A stretch of DNA of 38,095 bases from a virus. Lineage: Duplodnaviria; Heunggongvirae; Uroviricota; Caudoviricetes. The position numbers and the translations under genes are program-made. Within the stretch, counting starts at the first letter, position 1. Each line of letters starts with the position of its first letter. Location: IMG/VR virus record IMGVR_UViG_2526164613_000026, one strand, 5' to 3'. The notes under the pieces were generated by a model. That model did no database searches. It was not told the origin of the DNA and was given only the letters and a program-made list of their open reading frames with translations. Shown one piece after another: positions 3,836-25,118 of this stretch.

Positions 3836-4390
3836 CTATGCCTTATTTATCAAAAGAAAAGTAACCGATAATATGAAAAAACCGAAAGATAACGCAATTC
3901 CTTCAAAAAGATAACGAGCGTAAACTGCCTTTTCTTTATGAAGACTTTCGATCAATTCAACAGCTTTACCATACTGAAACATATGGTATCTAAGCGTTTT
4001 AATTTTATCACCGTAAAATAAAAAATCATGCTCTTCTTTTCGCTTATGAATAGGCATTTTTGGTATATCTTTCAGTCCCCAAGTACGCCATAGGAAAAAA
4101 AAGCACATAACAATACAAACAAAGCACAGATATGCACAAAGTATAGATAATGTTAAAAACCAATTACTCTTTAGCCCACTTTTGAAATCAACAGTCCCAA
4201 ATACAGCCAGTAGAGCAGAGGTTTCTACAGCTAAAATAGCAAGAAGGTAGTTAACTTTGTCCTCAAGACGACGATATGTTGATTTTGCTTCCTCATATCT
4301 ATCTTTATAATATGACGAAATAAAATCAGCGCCTATAGTCTCAATTGCCTTTTGTTCTTCTGTTGTATCTATTGACGAACGCTTGCTCAT
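3836..4390 (-). CDS. Accessory inner-membrane protein, 184 aa, three predicted TM helices, unknown function
   Basis: ATG verified at 4390, 7 nt after the secreted-protein stop. AT-rich by eye. Hydrophobic stretches LLAILAVETSALLAVFGTV, WFLTLSILCAYLCFVCIVMCFFFLW, ALSFGFFILSVTFLLI. Sits between baseplate genes. Confidence 0.6.
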   Translation of the reverse strand: MSKRSSIDTTEEQKAIETIGADFISSYYKDRYEEAKSTYRRLEDKVNYLLAILAVETSALLAVFGTVDFKSGLKSNWFLTLSILCAYLCFVCIVMCFFFLWRTWGLKDIPKMPIHKRKEEHDFLFYGDKIKTLRYHMFQYGKAVELIESLHKEKAVYARYLFEGIALSFGFFILSVTFLLINKA

Positions 4391-4397
4391 TTCTCAA

Positions 4398-4745
4398 TCA
4401 ACCAACAACTTTCTTACACGGGAAAGAGCCAATAATTTTCGGAGCATCCATGCTGTTCTGCAACAACTGGACGTTCAGGAAACGCGTTTTAGTGCCAGGT
4501 CGATGGATATACTCGAACCCATAATTGTTGCCATCTTTGGCAGGCATCAGGTCCATTTTGATCTGCATGCCTGTACCGTCTTTACCCAACATTTTTACTT
4601 TTTGGGACGTTACTGTTTCGCCATTGATTTTAAATAATGAATCAGGGATCGCATCCATACGAAAGTTGCCGCATTGCATCGTTATGGTGTTTGCACTTAC
4701 ACCAACAGACACTAATGCCAGCAATGAAAATATCCATCGTTTCAT
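4398..4745 (-). CDS. Accessory secreted/periplasmic protein, 115 aa precursor, unknown function
   Basis: ORF-track N-terminal extension overlaps the hub gene. Internal ATG at 4745 has GAGAGGA upstream and gives MKRWIFSLLALVSVGVSA followed by NT (signal peptide with AxA-like cleavage site, no lipobox Cys). Two Cys in mature part. Confidence 0.6.
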   Translation of the reverse strand: MKRWIFSLLALVSVGVSANTITMQCGNFRMDAIPDSLFKINGETVTSQKVKMLGKDGTGMQIKMDLMPAKDGNNYGFEYIHRPGTKTRFLNVQLLQNSMDAPKIIGSFPCKKVVG

Positions 4746-19440: not shown

Positions 19441-20013
19441 TTAGCCCATCATTTTTCTATACGCCTCTGCGGCCTGCTCCGGCGTTAAGTTGGTAATTTC
19501 TGTTCTGACGGGTCCTCCATCAGCGCCAGTCACTTCATTTTTGACGTTGTCTTTAAACGCCTGAACAGAAACATGACGCCCAAGCAACTCAAGGTTTTTA
19601 ACCTTATCAGGCCACTTAATCTTTTTAAGGATCCCGACCATTTCTCTGTCATCTCCTCGCCCCTCAAACATTTCAGCGAGGTTAAATCCACTCAGGTACC
19701 GACGCCACGATTCCGGCCACGCAGACAGAGGCTTAATACTTAAATCGTCCTCCAGGATGTCAGCCACATCGAGCCTGTCGATCTCAACCAGTCGCATCAG
19801 CACATAATTAGCATCAATGCCCAGTTGATCAATACGCTCCTGCTTTAGCTCGTTAATACGGGCGCGTATCTCAGGTTTACCGTATAGTTCAGCCCCCGTA
19901 ACATGTGCTCGCCTGGAGACGTAGCCTGCGCGAATAGCTGCTTGTGTAGCATTCAGATCGACAAGAAACTCGCGACAAAACACCTCGTGTTTTGCTTTCA
20001 GCTTCTTAGTCAT
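19441..20013 (-). CDS. Terminase small subunit
   Basis: 190 aa, ATG at 20013. N-terminal [25 protein letters not shown] is typical of small terminase DNA-binding domains. Confidence 0.75.
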
Positions 20014-20074
20014 TTTATTTTCCAGTTATCAGGTCATTATCGAAGCCCCTCCTGGAAGAGCTTCTGTAATGCTA

Positions 20075-20599
20075 TTACCGGGACTGTTCTATTTGTCGGA
20101 CACCAGCCAACTGGTTATTCGCCTTCTCGATGGCTGCCAACAGTGGGTTAATCCACAGAACAGCCTGGCAATATGTCAACGTTCTGGTGGTAGTGGCACG
20201 ATCACCGGCTGAGTCAATGTCCCCGGAATCGGCGTGCAATGCGCTGGCGCGTAAACGGTTCGCGTAGTTGAGCAACCCGACAGCAATATCAACAGGAACA
20301 GGGAAATCACAGTTCTTTTCACGGAGCAGAACCTCACGGTATTTGATGACTGTCTTCTCGTGACCGATGTCGACCAGAGAATTTAATCGGCTTGCGTTTT
20401 CTGCTATCTGGTTAAAACGATTGAAGTTTAATGCCTGATTAGCTATCACTTTCCCTTGATATTCAGCTTCACCTTCCGCTTTATCAGCCCGCAACTTTTC
20501 TGCCTGATACTTGCTGTGGTAATGGTTTGCAGACCAGACGAGCGCCCCAAAGGCAGAGAAGAAAAATGCCGCGATGACAATCTTATAAGTCAGCTTCAT
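20075..20599 (-). CDS. Rz: Rz-like i-spanin
   Basis: 174 aa, ATG at 20599. N-terminal signal-anchor (IVIAAFFFSAFGALVWSANHYH), coiled-coil-like periplasmic part, directly after endolysin. Confidence 0.8.
   Translation of the reverse strand: MKLTYKIVIAAFFFSAFGALVWSANHYHSKYQAEKLRADKAEGEAEYQGKVIANQALNFNRFNQIAENASRLNSLVDIGHEKTVIKYREVLLREKNCDFPVPVDIAVGLLNYANRLRASALHADSGDIDSAGDRATTTRTLTYCQAVLWINPLLAAIEKANNQLAGVRQIEQSR
20176..20322 (-). CDS. Rz1: Rz1-like o-spanin lipoprotein embedded in Rz (+1 frame)
   Basis: Hand-translated 48 aa: MKRTVISLFLLILLSGC-STTRTVYAPAHCTPIPGTLTQPVIVPLPPER. GTG start at 20322 with GAGG upstream, lipobox LLSGC, proline-rich C-terminus. Absent from ORF track (GTG start, under 60 aa). 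Confidence 0.6.
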   Translation of the reverse strand: MKRTVISLFLLILLSGCSTTRTVYAPAHCTPIPGTLTQPVIVPLPPER

Positions 20600-21059
20600 T
20601 TACCATCCCACCAGCATCTTTAAACCTGGAAATCAGGTCACCGATTTTATGTTCATACTGACCGTAACCTGCACCAGGTAACGACGCCCAGATATTGCTG
20701 CAACGGTCGATTGCCTGACGAATATCGCCACGGTCAATCATCGGTAAAGCGCCACGCTCTTTAATCTGCTGCAGCGCCACAGCGTCCTGACTTTCTGGCG
20801 AAAAATCTTTCAGGCCAAGCTGCTTGCGGTAGGCATCCCACCAGCGTGAAAGAAGCTGATACCGGCCTGCGGCTGTTGATTTAAGCTTCGGGTTTAGCGT
20901 GACAAGTTTGCGAGGGTGATCGGAGTAATCAGTGAACAACTCACCTCCGACGATAACGTCATAACCGTGATTACGTGTCGGTTGTCGCCCGTTATCCGTT
21001 CCTTCTGACCATGCCACCATATCCAGGAAAGCTTTGCGTTGGGAATTTAGTGTCTGCAT
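20583..21059 (-). CDS. R: Endolysin, lambda R-type lytic transglycosylase
   Basis: 158 aa, near-identical over most of its length to lambda R as recalled (NSQRKAFLDMVAWSEGTDNGRQ...DRGDIRQAIDRCSNIWASLPGAGYGQ). Confidence 0.9.
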   Translation of the reverse strand: MQTLNSQRKAFLDMVAWSEGTDNGRQPTRNHGYDVIVGGELFTDYSDHPRKLVTLNPKLKSTAAGRYQLLSRWWDAYRKQLGLKDFSPESQDAVALQQIKERGALPMIDRGDIRQAIDRCSNIWASLPGAGYGQYEHKIGDLISRFKDAGGMVNEADL

Positions 21060-21062
21060 GAA

Positions 21063-21404
21063 TTACTCCTTAGAGCCACCAAACTTGTTACCGATTACTC
21101 GCATTGCAGCCCCACGAATAGCATCGACACCGATCAGCCCAACACCACCACCAATGGCAACAGAAAGAGATTTAGGCCATCCAACATACTCAAGAGCGGA
21201 TGCAAAGGTCAGCGTCAGAGCACCACAGAGCAAAATCTCAAGCGTTTTTCGTTTCCAGCCGCCGCCACCGCCAAAATAGGCAATGCGCAAGCCAGCCATA
21301 ACAATTGACATAACCACTGCGCCCAACGGCGTATCTCCACGCCACCAACTTTGTAAGAGTTCCAGTAAGTCAGGCCAGGAATGAGGAGCATTGTGCATTT
21401 TCAT
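21063..21404 (-). CDS. Holin, class I-like with dual-start motif
   Basis: ORF track starts at ATG 21422 (119 aa). GGAGGTG sits before the ATG at 21404 (MKMHNAPHSW, 113 aa), with a further ATG at 21398. Three hydrophobic segments. Immediately upstream of R. Confidence 0.75.
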   Translation of the reverse strand: MKMHNAPHSWPDLLELLQSWWRGDTPLGAVVMSIVMAGLRIAYFGGGGGWKRKTLEILLCGALTLTFASALEYVGWPKSLSVAIGGGVGLIGVDAIRGAAMRVIGNKFGGSKE

Positions 21405-21503
21405 ACTTCCCACCTCCGCCATTACGGGGTGTTGTTGAAAGGCGGGCCCTGCGTATACGCCCGTAGGATTGGGTTATGAGCCGTCCTTCGGTGGGCCCTG
21501 AAT

Positions 21504-21527
21504 ACAAAAAAGTTCGCCATAGCGAAC
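21504..21527 (-). terminator. Intrinsic terminator about 80 nt upstream of holin (tR'-like position)
   Basis: Minus-strand RNA GUUCGC-UAUG-GCGAAC (6-bp stem) followed by UUUUUUGUAUU. Confidence 0.6.
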
Positions 21528-21753
21528 CTTGTTAAATTTGTTAAAAAGGAAGTTATTTAACATAATGTACGTTATAGGAACCACACGATCCCCGCTCGCA
21601 ATAGATTTGCGATGAAAGGCCTATTTAATCAACTTAAGTGGTCCAGAATGACGAAATTCGAGTGAATAAAAGGTGCATAAAAAAGGGCAAAAACTGCATA
21701 GCGTTTTTTCGCAGCGAAAGCCCTGTTTTATTAACTTTTCCCCAGAATGGGGC

Positions 21754-21780
21754 AATAAAAAAGGCCCCCTTGCGGAAGCC
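21754..21780 (-). terminator. Intrinsic terminator downstream of Q and the 113-aa gene, strand-specific
   Basis: Minus-strand RNA GGCUUCC-GCAA-GGGGGCC (7 pairs including two G-U) followed by UUUUUUAUU. The same helix on the plus-strand transcript would need C-A mispairs. Confidence 0.6.
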
Positions 21781-21847
21781 TCTTCGTGATGAACTGTTTT
21801 CAACAGATATCAGGCTAATCGGCTTTTTGGAATTCCACAACTATTTT

Positions 21848-22189
21848 TTATCTTACCTTGATGCCTGATGCCGTCAGATGTTTACGACAGTCCTGAATAC
21901 CTTCGTTATAACCCGCATCGTAGAAGCTATCCGGCTTTGCCTTCAGCGCAGGAAGCGTAACGCTGGTAGCTCTTCGTTCGGCCAGAACACCTGCCTGAAA
22001 GAGTGTCCACATCAACTGAACTGCTGAATCACAGTAAGTAACATCTTCACTGTACAATTCTCGTTCAATCCTGATGCCAAGTTGAGCCTTCATTGATGCG
22101 CCAATATTACCTTTGACCTGCAACGACAGGTCTGGGTACCTCTGTTCCATGAAGCTTTCAAATCTGTTGCGAACGCTGATCAGAGCCAT
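21848..22189 (-). CDS. Hypothetical protein, 113 aa, between Q and the late/lysis region
   Basis: ATG at 22189 with AAGGGAA 6 nt upstream. Only 31 nt after Q stop. No family recognised. Confidence 0.5.
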   Translation of the reverse strand: MALISVRNRFESFMEQRYPDLSLQVKGNIGASMKAQLGIRIERELYSEDVTYCDSAVQLMWTLFQAGVLAERRATSVTLPALKAKPDSFYDAGYNEGIQDCRKHLTASGIKVR

Positions 22190-22220
22190 CTGGTTCCCTT
22201 ACGTGATTGATTGCTGGATA

Positions 22221-22643
22221 TTATGCCGCCGAGCAGCTCCTACGCAAAGTCCTGATAGCCTGAGGCTTTGACTGAACCGACTGATCCATTTCGAGCACCA
22301 CATCCAGCATGGCTAAGCAACCGTCAATAAATCCCTCTGCCGCCTGAAGCCTCTTCAGAACGTGGGTGTGAGATACGCCGAGCTTCTCACCCATCGCCCG
22401 CACGGGCATGGCCTGGACGTAATGCCACTCAAGGAGCGTGCACAGATACGGATCTTTTTTCTTCAGGCAGCTCATAGCGGAGTTGATGATAAGACCGTCA
22501 TTGTCACTGCATTTCAGCCTTCCAGACTGCGTCGCGGGTAGCAGATTCTTAAACCCGGCTGCAACAGGAGGAAAGTAGACGCTACCACCTTCACTCGCTG
22601 CCCAGCCACCCCAGCGCTCTAAAACCTGTTGAATATTACGCAT
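22221..22643 (-). CDS. Late-gene antiterminator Q (QuuD-like family)
   Basis: 140 aa, ATG at 22643. N-terminus MRNIQQVLERWGGWAA and overall pattern resemble DLP12 QuuD as recalled. Sits immediately upstream of the late region. Confidence 0.75.
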   Translation of the reverse strand: MRNIQQVLERWGGWAASEGGSVYFPPVAAGFKNLLPATQSGRLKCSDNDGLIINSAMSCLKKKDPYLCTLLEWHYVQAMPVRAMGEKLGVSHTHVLKRLQAAEGFIDGCLAMLDVVLEMDQSVQSKPQAIRTLRRSCSAA

Positions 22644-22774
22644 GGCTCTGACCTCTACGTTTTGCTACGAAAAAATTTTCTGAGAACTACGTCTGTTTAT
22701 CCGTGGGTGTGGATAACGCAGTTCCGATTCGCATATTGCATGTATCAACATGCAAAAAGTTGCTAATGCGGAGT

Positions 22775-22962
22775 GGAACCACCTGCCCCCACCTGGAACC
22801 ACCTTTTCCTAACCTTTCCCTCAATCGACTTATATATATATATGGGGTTTCTAGTAGAAAGGCGGTTCCAGTGGTTCCAGTGGTTCCGCCCCGCTTGCCA
22901 CAAGGTCTGCAAGGTGGAACCACCTTCTCTTTTAGGTGGTTCCGCGTGGTTCCAGCGGTTCC
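22775..22962. repeat. Iteron cluster, putative replication origin
   Basis: Nine GGAACC/GGTTCC hexamers counted by hand (consensus about AGGTGGTTCCA): three in one orientation at 22775, 22795, 22916 and six inverted at 22864, 22873, 22882, 22938, 22948, 22957. They flank a (TA)n tract TATATATATATAT at 22831..22843 and overlap the primase-helicase 3' end. Confidence 0.65.
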
Positions 22963-25118
22963 CAAACCTTGCATTTTTTCCCCCCAATTCGCCTTTGGGC
23001 ACGCTTATACCCGCAATTTTGCAAAACATTACTAATTCGCATTTCTTCGCGTTTTCCGATGCGGTCAGGATTTAGCCCAATCGCATCACGCAAAACATCA
23101 CTTGCGCGTAAAAATTCGCAATTTCGCGGAAGTTCATTAGTCATCAGGTCTGGCGTGTCGAGCCATTTCTCTACCGTTTCAAGCCAAGCATCCTTGATGG
23201 TGTACTGTTCATGGACACTCGCTGCCAGTTGTTCAGCCTCACGGAACTGGATACCCCCCAGACGCTGAAACACCTCACGAGCCTCAGCCCAAAGTAAAAG
23301 GAGATCTCTTTTTATCACTTTCACGTCGACTTTCGACACTTCCACGGGGAGCCAGCGACGGTTACCAGTCTTGTCCGCAAGGAATTCGTCCTCATTGGTG
23401 GTACCAACGAACACCAAGCGACGAGGAAACTGGGTGGCGAACTCCCGGTATTTCGGGATCCAGTTTTCGTGAGTACGCGTCACAAACGCTTTGATTGACT
23501 CCAGCTCTTTGGTATTAAGTCCGCGCAGTTCACCAATCTCTGCCACCAGCCGACCACGCATTTTTCGAGCGAGATCATCGTCTTTTTCGGCAAAAGAGAT
23601 TTCAGTAAAAAACGCAGGATCAGGGCTCAGTGCCTCCACTCCGGAAGACTTACCGCAGCCCTGCGGACCAACGAGGATCGGCACCATATCCGCTTTGATG
23701 CCTGGCTCCAGTACTCGCCCCGCCAACGCGGTCCACATGTACATAGACACCGCACGGGTATAAGGCGTGTCGGCTGTACCGAAGTGCGTATGGTAGAAAC
23801 ATTCGATGCGCGGCACGCCATCCCACTCCAGCCCGTTCAGCCAGGTGATCGCTGAATCGAATGGTTGTTCATCGGCTGCAAGTAACACCACATCGCGAAT
23901 AAGTTCACGACCAACAGGTTTAAATCCCCGCTTTTCCATCGTGATGCGCAGGCGCGCATAATCCGCATCGGTGAATGCCCGCCATTGTCCGGATCCTGCA
24001 GGGGCAAACATGATTTCGTCGCGGAACTGGTCAAAGCGAATATCGATGTCCACAAAATCAGGGCGTACTACTGCTTTGGCTGCGTTGCTGATGGTTGCCT
24101 CGATACGCCCCCATTTATCACGCTCGAAAGCAGGCAGCGGTAAAGGTTCCGCCACTTCGGTGCTGGTCAGATCTTCGAAATCGTCGTTGCGGATCCCGAT
24201 GGCATTAAGGAAATCTCCGTCATCACGATGCGCACAACTGGCATGCAGGCATTTAAAATGCCCCTGCTCAAAGCCCGCGGTTCCCGCAGGAAAATAAGCT
24301 GTGCTTGTTGGATCGCCCCCGCTACTGTGGCCGTCTTCAAACGGACAGCGGATATATCGTTCACCATTTGCGCCATCCAGCAGCGTCCAGCCATTGGCAT
24401 CAAGATATTCAGCTGTATCATCCGTCGCGCCGGGCGTGAATGCTGATCGGTCGCGCATCTTCGTGTTGCCCGCTTCGGTGGTTACCGACACAGGGAGTTG
24501 TTCAGCCAGGCGCTGCCACAGCGTTTCAAGCTGCTCACCAGTAATAGCCGGAGGTTCATCCGGCAAACCACCGTCCCATTCAATACGCGCGCCGCTGCTG
24601 TGCGTACCACAGGCAACGAACTGCTGCCCGTTCGCCAGCAACTCGATAATGCCCATATCCCCCGCCAGGCGATGGATACGCTTACGGAAATCACCATCAA
24701 CGGCCAGCAGATACAGACACTTATTACTGTTTGCTCGCCAGCGTCGCGGCGGCAACTCCCCCAGAAGTTGCACAAGCGTTTTGCGAATATCTGCCTGAAT
24801 GTCTTCATCTTCGCTATCGCAGTCCAGCGCCAGCCAGCCATGGCCTGTACGCACGCAGATGCCATAATCCGGTTCATTCGACCAGCGGGCAAAATCATGC
24901 TCAGTAGCAACATACCCGGTCCATTGAGCAATACCGGTGACCTGGCGGTCCCGGTTATAGCGACTTGGCGTCTTACCCAGCGCTTTCAGTTTACTATCAG
25001 GGGATATAGTCGCACCGGGGTTACATACAACTGGGAGAAGATGATCAGTTCTCCCCAATACCAGGTCGAAATGAAACCACTCATCAGGCGTAGCTCCCCA
25101 TGGTTTGCTATCGGACAT
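22932..25118 (-). CDS. Replicative primase-helicase (PrimPol-like N-terminus plus VirE-type P-loop C-terminus, P4 alpha-like architecture)
   Basis: 728 aa, ATG at 25118, 3 nt after Cro-like stop. Walker A ILVGPQGCGKSS and Walker B-like RLVFVGTTNE in the C-terminal half. Last codons are encoded by the iteron repeats. Confidence 0.8.
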   Translation of the reverse strand: MSDSKPWGATPDEWFHFDLVLGRTDHLLPVVCNPGATISPDSKLKALGKTPSRYNRDRQVTGIAQWTGYVATEHDFARWSNEPDYGICVRTGHGWLALDCDSEDEDIQADIRKTLVQLLGELPPRRWRANSNKCLYLLAVDGDFRKRIHRLAGDMGIIELLANGQQFVACGTHSSGARIEWDGGLPDEPPAITGEQLETLWQRLAEQLPVSVTTEAGNTKMRDRSAFTPGATDDTAEYLDANGWTLLDGANGERYIRCPFEDGHSSGGDPTSTAYFPAGTAGFEQGHFKCLHASCAHRDDGDFLNAIGIRNDDFEDLTSTEVAEPLPLPAFERDKWGRIEATISNAAKAVVRPDFVDIDIRFDQFRDEIMFAPAGSGQWRAFTDADYARLRITMEKRGFKPVGRELIRDVVLLAADEQPFDSAITWLNGLEWDGVPRIECFYHTHFGTADTPYTRAVSMYMWTALAGRVLEPGIKADMVPILVGPQGCGKSSGVEALSPDPAFFTEISFAEKDDDLARKMRGRLVAEIGELRGLNTKELESIKAFVTRTHENWIPKYREFATQFPRRLVFVGTTNEDEFLADKTGNRRWLPVEVSKVDVKVIKRDLLLLWAEAREVFQRLGGIQFREAEQLAASVHEQYTIKDAWLETVEKWLDTPDLMTNELPRNCEFLRASDVLRDAIGLNPDRIGKREEMRISNVLQNCGYKRAQRRIGGKKCKVWEPLEPRGTT

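Follow-up and report, generated by a model that had tools for sequence, protein, structure and literature searches.

The moron concept arose from comparisons of phages HK97 and HK022, and stx of the Stx phages is the example of an extra gene carried between Q and S. In the lambdoid phages, a Q-S moron is variably present among otherwise syntenic phages; its place is between Q and S, with a terminator after it. The same part of the genome harbors other small and non-essential genes, namely the nin-region ORFs ninA-ninH and orf-64 of lambda, located in the distal pR operon or in the Q-S gap; orf-64 is present in the lambda record.

The Q cassettes of lambda, 21, 82 and 933W share an order of Q, promoter, short leader, intrinsic terminator and lysis genes and include a sigma-dependent pause; in the textbook arrangement the late promoter pR' lies directly behind Q or overlaps its end. 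According to the structural paper on Q21, the cassette is made up of a promoter that carries a Q-binding element, then a short leader and the terminator tR', and the Q21 site consists of direct repeats. Lambda Q and Q21 are described as structurally different proteins.

The window analyzed here is the whole of a 38,095-nt stretch of DNA from a virus of the Caudoviricetes (IMG/VR record IMGVR_UViG_2526164613_000026). A first-pass annotation, made from the sequence alone, had singled out a 113-aa gene downstream of Q as an orphan in the Q-to-S interval, a known moron hotspot of the lambdoid phages. The window resembles the Q cassettes listed above: Q, a promoter-like block whose spacer measures 17 bp, a short leader and an intrinsic terminator precede the lysis genes. 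It departs from the textbook cassette in that a 342-nt gene is interposed between Q and the putative late promoter and in that the hexamers of this promoter are weak; moreover, the putative Q site is a 16-bp palindrome, unlike the direct repeats of Q21. The interposed gene resembles the lambdoid Q-S morons in being an extra, variably present gene of the Q-S interval with a terminator after it, but no convincing promoter of its own was found. Unlike stx, it lies upstream of the putative late promoter and so would be outside the late transcript. Like ninA-ninH and orf-64 it is small and non-essential; however, its product has no sequence similarity to any Nin family, and unlike orf-64 it is conserved across genera under purifying selection.

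Results

A conserved gene downstream of Q

The 113-aa gene occupies 21848..22189 on the minus strand, with its ATG at 22189 in the ORF list and a ribosome-binding site, AAGGGAA (22200-22194), 4 nt 5' of the ATG. By direct reading of the sequence, the 31-nt spacer between Q and the gene (22190..22220, minus) carries only this AAGGGAA; it is too small for a terminator and contains none. The Q-gene spacers of the Rahnella, Logan and Escherichia sp. relatives are similarly short, at 15-31 nt. Reading of the sequence bears out all that the first-pass annotation had recorded of these signals: the coordinates, the start codon, the ribosome-binding site, the gap to Q and the position ahead of the first terminator. 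Its placement of the gene relative to Q also stands; both are encoded by the minus strand, as are the lysis genes.

Length alone is poor proof of coding in the window, where many spurious ORFs reach a similar size. The coding status of the 113-aa gene is instead established by homologues of 32-86% identity in other genera and by a dN/dS of 0.06 against the 86%-identical copy of Escherichia sp. E1130 (46 synonymous and 20 non-synonymous changes), a value like that of Q in the same comparison (0.07). The ORF is a genuine gene under strong purifying selection, in agreement with its initial description as a well-supported gene tightly linked to Q, and the dN/dS rules out a chance non-coding ORF.

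The segment of the window from 19.4 to 25.1 kb is transcribed on the minus strand. The VapE/primase gene (22932..25118, minus) lies 5' of Q (22221..22643, minus), which encodes a 140-aa antiterminator matched by PF06530 (E 5e-42) and PHROG 79 and annotated in RefSeq as 'antiterminator Q family protein'. This Q is ~42-46% identical to the Q of Stx-converting phages, and a tblastn search with it matches 402 phage records annotated as Q. On the other side of the 113-aa gene, 443 nt of non-coding DNA separate it from the holin gene. The first intrinsic terminator, T1 (21754..21782, minus), is tR'-like, with a 12-bp stem, a GCAA loop of the GNRA type and a T6 run (RNAfold, -19.1 kcal/mol), and lies ~65 nt past the stop codon of the 113-aa gene and ~50 nt past the putative pR' start. 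A second, T2 (21501..21530, minus), found in a terminator scan and with an RNAfold z-score of -3.7, is located in the leader 5' of the lysis genes. First among these genes is a lambda-family holin with the dual start M-K-M (21063..21404, minus; PF05106 E 1e-27, PHROG 126 and RefSeq), after which come a GH24 endolysin, Rz/Rz1 and the small terminase. The morphogenesis genes of the element are of the contractile-tail phage type, so that the lambdoid label given to the phage at first pass applies solely to the regulatory and lysis modules.

Several other features of this region were recorded. The lambda-like dual start of the holin is ATG-AAA-ATG at 21404-21396, preceded by GGAGG, and another in-frame ATG is found at 21422 (21396-21422, minus). 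The ~220 nt between T1 and T2 (21531-21753, minus) are conserved and non-coding, with no credible ORF, tRNA or Rfam family; an Rfam scan of positions 20000-24000 returned just sub-threshold hairpin matches, and a search for tRNA genes found none in the window. Between the primase/VapE stop codon and Q, overlapping the 3' end of the primase gene, the segment 22768-22964 holds at least nine copies of GTGGTTCC(A)/TGGAACCAC in both orientations, with an (AT)n run at 22832-22843 amid them. By its appearance the array could be of the iteron or origin type, or else serve to bind a regulator, and the core of the repeats resembles GTGGAATTCC of the palindrome in the putative pR'. Toward the other end of the element, a prophage related to the integrase-proximal end of the window (L001, 33407-34336 and 32390-33404) carries, by RefSeq annotation, a BstA C-terminal-domain protein and a frameshifted cytosine methyltransferase; the former we take to be a prophage-encoded defence protein. 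The prophage is inserted beside yfhL, again by RefSeq annotation.

Family membership and predicted structure

The gene is no orphan. Its product is 100% identical to RefSeq WP_001174014.1, for which the newer RefSeq annotation gives the name 'phiTE_015 family protein'. Precomputed matches to PF26207 (Phage_phiTE_015) cover the 99% identical cluster representatives P0001 and P0002 and 20 or more relatives, and the 86%-identical copy likewise matches this family (E at most 1e-5). PHROG 343, for which function is unassigned, is matched by residues 5-112 of the window protein (hmmscan E 2.8e-18) and by 35 of the 35 aligned relatives. Searches of 5.8 billion and 1.84 billion proteins returned relatives from Escherichia, Rahnella, Yersinia ruckeri, Providencia, Proteus, Xenorhabdus and Limnobaculum, and a search of IMG/VR added 38 further loci with homologues of the gene. 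In the phage collection, tblastn found a single record with a relative, vB_PvuS_Pm34; the scan of genome contigs found no relatives. Altogether ~35 diverged relatives were recovered, making the family small yet clear. The profile matches thus place the 113-aa gene in an already catalogued, functionally uncharacterised family, PF26207 / PHROG 343, and a literature search on phiTE_015, PF26207, WP_001174014 and vB_EcoM-611R5 found no papers.

The namesake of the family, phiTE_015 (JQ015307, 94 aa), is encoded by phiTE, a virulent Vequintavirinae phage with Pectobacterium as host. The conserved pattern is only weakly shared by phiTE_015, whose alignment with the subgroup studied here is likewise weak (hhalign E 0.022). 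Furthermore, this subgroup is linked to Q and is specific to temperate phages of the Enterobacterales, whereas the namesake comes from a virulent phage.

In the alignment of 35 sequences (32-86% identity), F10, E11, W61, G67, L79, P80, P86, D91, G93 and N95 are invariant, and the C-terminal part conforms to the motif LP..K..P[DE].[FY]YDAGYNEG[IV].[DE]C[RK][RK].L. Residues 30-45 constitute a variable loop, which is longer in the E. coli lineage. The window protein is soluble, with a mass of 12.7 kDa, a pI of 8.6 and a GRAVY of -0.25. Two AlphaFold2 runs, with alignments of 17 and 23 sequences, converged on the same model (pLDDT 77-78, pTM 0.61-0.62), in which a helix at 6-17, a disordered loop at 30-45, long helices at 55-74 and 89-107 and four short strands are predicted to form a small alpha/beta domain.

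Comparison of this model with known structures did not lead to a function. Foldseek against the PDB found no solved fold (best E 0.65, TM at most 0.38), and BRCT and RuvC matches from that search were dismissed for their low probability; against BFVD it found just uncharacterised phage proteins (TM at most 0.42), and phmmer and profile searches of PDB sequences gave nothing meaningful. At the level of profiles, scans with NCBIfam and with a local Pfam-A set that was without the PF26207 model, at E up to 1, assigned no family to the window protein. A Pfam scan of all 35 relatives gave noise, with no RusA, NinG, NinH, Q or similar family, and a PADLOC-DB 2.0 scan of the window protein at E up to 10 matched zero defence families. 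No HTH or sigma-like signature appeared in profile scans of the window protein and its relatives, nor was any enzyme, DNA-binding, membrane or structural signature recognisable in the window protein. A homologue of a Nin-region protein or a late regulator was rejected, as no profile matched. The original statement that the gene is not RusA-, NinG- or NinH-like is therefore upheld by the Pfam and NCBIfam scans of the protein and by the Pfam scan of its 35 relatives; of the checks proposed with it, the profile search led to PF26207 / PHROG 343 and the structure search ended without a PDB fold.

A candidate late promoter downstream of the gene

Immediately beyond the gene lies a segment that, judging from its position, spacing and comparison with related phages, is the probable Q-cognate late promoter, pR' (21806..21840, minus). 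It begins 7 nt past the stop codon and is composed of a -35 element TTGTGG (21840-21835), a 17-bp spacer and a -10 element TAGCCT (21817-21812), each hexamer matching the sigma-70 consensus at just 3/6 positions. A 16-bp palindrome, TTGTGGAATTCCAAAA (21840-21825, minus), covers the -35 element and part of the spacer.

The 12-mer TTGTGGAATTCC follows the 113-aa gene in every locus found by protein homology in which the PF06530 Q is at least 63% identical to that of the window, and an identical block, TTGTGGAATTCC(AAAAA) / TTGTGGAATTCCAAAAA, stands 7-12 nt past the stop codon in those loci, where the proteins themselves are merely ~45% identical. Scanning IMG/VR for the 17-mer yielded 57 stretches, ~30 of which have the order Q-gene-block, while ~20 have Q and the block without the gene; the remaining stretches match by chance, within coding DNA that is unrelated. 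In the ~20 gene-less stretches, Q is 61-71% identical to that of the window, and its end overlaps the block or is separated from it by 0-48 nt; in some phages the TAG stop codon of Q is the first triplet of the -10 element.

An independent scan of IMG/VR, seeded with a Q profile, recovered at least 581 loci with a Q. In the 80 best of these, the block, scored at up to three mismatches, starts ~405 nt past the start of Q in every gene-less locus where Q reaches ~57% identity, and it vanishes in Qs below that value, as fits a Q-specific site. Ten of these 80 closest Q relatives carry the 113-aa gene, always in the order Q-gene-block. Alignment of twenty distinct versions of the block gives the consensus AAAAAAGG-TTGTGG-(17 bp)-TA(N3)T-G-TTAAGAGTGG, and in most relatives a GC-rich hairpin with a T-run is found past a conserved leader, 50-70 nt 3' of the consensus block. 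The leader of the window past the -10 element, GATATCTGTTGAAAAC, is unlike the TTAAGAGTGG leader of the related phages. In one group of relatives (L118-L130 and L153), the palindrome takes the form TTGTGTAATTACAAAA, with both half-sites altered symmetrically, which suggests a site bound by a dimer, possibly the element at which the Qs of this subfamily bind.

We infer from these comparisons that 21840-21806 would serve as pR' and 21782-21754 as tR', because the layout matches the Q-dependent cassette of the Q21 structural paper. On this interpretation, the first terminator of the original annotation would be the tR' of the late leader. A late-operon gene was rejected for this phage on the ground that the putative promoter lies downstream of the gene.

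Position of the gene beside other Q families

Relatives of the 113-aa gene are found next to Qs of four families, PF06530, PF03589, PF06323 and DUF1133. Lambda-type Qs (PF03589) are found in Providencia, in phage Pm34 and in several contigs of IMG/VR; beside them the DNA from Q to the gene aligns with the authentic pR' of lambda over the -35 element, the spacer with the Q-binding element, the -10 element and the AATAGTGGG pause-like element; a hairpin terminator comes next and then the gene. Such relatives thus have a likeness to the lambda cassette itself. The order of terminator and then gene recurs beside a 53%-identical PF06530 Q (L040) and beside DUF1133 Q-like genes (L042-L048). In the lambda-type, DUF1133-type and L040-type lineages, the gene is the first ORF past pR'-tR'. 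With the 82-type Q (PF06323) of Limnobaculum, it lies 1.5 kb downstream, behind ORF6N and HicAB.

In all of the relatives checked, then, the gene adjoins the pR'-tR' cassette, upstream or downstream of it, whatever the family of Q. A terminator stands 3' of the gene in all contexts, and in the window this terminator would also serve the late leader past the putative pR'. The holins and virion types that the gene accompanies are varied.

Two details of individual loci may be mentioned. In L036, which has a lambda-type Q, a decayed leader of the PF06530 type (TAAGAGT..CACACAGCTTATTGAATTA and a terminator) occupies 4300-4410, 3' of the gene, and is homologous to the leader 5' of the gene in L040 (3770-3880); this suggests module swapping, or replacement of the Q module. 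In the Providencia-type loci L004 (3560-3592) and L049 (3975-4008), the 3' arm of the tR' hairpin and its T-run end 2-3 nt before the ATG of the gene, which raises the possibility that the ribosome-binding region is inside the terminator stem and that translation is coupled to antitermination.

Presence, absence and natural deletions

The junction of Q and holin was found in 147 of 5426 complete E. coli genomes, always chromosomal and once per genome. An intact gene is carried by 62-63 of the 147. At least 32 others retain just the last 57 nt of it, owing to a deletion of 286 nt (21900..22185, minus) that joins ATGG to TATTC at an ATGG/AAGG micro-homology and leaves a 9-codon remnant; the same deletion is present in the induced phages vB_EcoM-611R5, -689R2, -683R1 and -606R2. 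In ~50 of the 147 genomes the gene is absent, and a different Q allele is joined near T1. Frameshifted alleles with 1 nt missing were seen in three loci (L030, L031 and L039). In addition, N-terminal fragments of 41-58 aa (P0015, P0016 and P0021) are widespread, with P0016 on 85 contigs, and such truncated fragments probably seeded PHROG 37465.

The different Q allele of the ~50 genomes encodes a protein of 144 aa; the leader downstream of it is the same, with the join at the first terminator (L107, 640-760, minus). This type of junction has a different hairpin and no TTGTGGAATTCC block, so that the mosaic boundary falls exactly at tR'.

Loss of the gene is common, through the 286-nt deletion, through frameshifts and through Q alleles that lack it, and the gene is therefore dispensable for prophage maintenance. 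It is also dispensable for virion production, insofar as the deposited phages represent particles. The presence/absence survey proposed at the outset thus revealed a gene that is present or absent among otherwise syntenic prophages. In this respect the gene is moron-like; in this phage it would lie outside the Q-dependent late transcript.

Discussion

Taken together, the comparisons favor a selectively kept but dispensable accessory gene, placed between Q and the late promoter and encoding a host-directed protein for the middle-to-late switch, and on balance we consider this the probable explanation. Its parts are held with different confidence. The layout is the firmest: the order is very probably Q, gene, pR' and tR', with the gene as the last cistron of the Q transcript, because the spacer is 31 nt long, without a terminator, and no promoter is conserved. 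In this prophage the gene would then have been inserted between Q and the cognate late promoter of Q and would be transcribed at the end of the middle or delayed-early Q message. Without antitermination of RNA polymerase, both this message and the short pR' leader would stop 65 nt downstream, at the tR'-like hairpin. Elsewhere the gene would be the first late ORF. Since it is found on either side of pR'-tR', what is conserved may be the timing of its expression, at the middle-to-late switch, not partnership with one Q.

The functional class is more tentative, and we put it forward as somewhat short of an even chance: a non-essential, soluble, host-directed accessory protein, engaged in takeover or counter-defence. 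Such a protein would act in the cytoplasm on a host target and would not be part of the antitermination, lysis or assembly machinery. This assignment is suggested by the small size and solubility of the protein, by its dispensability for Q systems, by its association with four Q families and with varied holins and virions, and by a family named after a gene of a virulent phage.

An autonomous moron, with a promoter of its own at the 3' end of Q, expression in the lysogen and a conversion phenotype such as the exclusion of other phages, would account for the occurrence of the gene in some but not all syntenic prophages and for the terminator that follows it in every context. The gene is also slightly lower in GC than Q (47% vs 54%; GC3 0.48 vs 0.60). 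The one candidate for such a promoter is a promoter-like match, TTGCGT-16-CATAAT, which lies over the stop codon of Q (22220..22247, minus), is weak and falls below the criteria of the promoter scan. Its -10-like CATAAT is retained in the E. coli and Escherichia sp. copies, but this hexamer is largely imposed by the conserved Ala-stop codons, and the -35 element matches at just 3/6 positions. The Rahnella and Logan relatives, with spacers of 15-19 nt, have no comparable promoter, and in other lineages a terminator directly precedes the gene with no promoter between them. Nor does the protein have the membrane or secretion signal typical of exclusion proteins, or any PADLOC match. We regard an autonomous moron expressed in the lysogen as unlikely.

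The tie to pR'-tR' could alternatively mean a role in the late switch itself. The protein might then adjust how RNA polymerase pauses or terminates at pR'/tR', have RNA polymerase or NusA as its target, or couple late transcription with the timing of lysis. In that case PF26207 proteins would be an optional part of Q-dependent late switches that has so far gone unrecognised, affecting RNA polymerase, NusA, terminator read-through or the interval from Q action to lysis; the attachment of the gene to the cassette, immediately on one side or the other, beside Qs of four families, would then be explained. The overlap between the 3' arm of the terminator and the ribosome-binding region of the gene in some loci also speaks for it. 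However, the gene is rare among the closest Q relatives (10 of 80) and is frequently deleted in nature, which shows that Q systems can do without it. Its Q partners come from different Pfam families, and lambda Q is described as structurally different from Q21; the Pfam family takes its name from a gene of the virulent phage phiTE; and the protein has no HTH or sigma-like signature. A dedicated switch component is accordingly quite improbable in our estimation.

That the protein is a misfiled known one (a Nin or late regulator, a head-closure or connector protein, or a chance ORF) is hardly credible, since the one point in its favor, a match of residues 60-112 to PHROG 15831, labelled 'head closure' (E 2e-19), spans positions 9-60 of 112 of that profile only, and the gene lies between Q and holin in the regulatory region, far from a morphogenesis module that has its own neck and head-completion genes by RefSeq annotation, while no Pfam or NCBIfam profile of RusA, NinG, NinH or the like matches and the dN/dS excludes a chance ORF.

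Conclusions

The gene itself is of little consequence, as it encodes a catalogued protein that the phage can lose. More useful are two by-products of the analysis, the pR' candidate with its palindrome and the positional rule for PF26207. The comparison pins down a probable late promoter and Q-binding region for a large Q subfamily, represented by at least 581 IMG/VR loci and related to the Q of the Stx phages, in which the palindrome over the -35 element appears to keep its symmetry on mutation. That PF26207 genes are strictly attached to this cassette of promoter and terminator, whatever the Q family, is a clear and testable rule, and E. coli prophages and induced phages offer natural isogenic alleles that have or lack the gene. 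If the protein proved to act in counter-defence or to modulate the late switch, PF26207 would gain a function.
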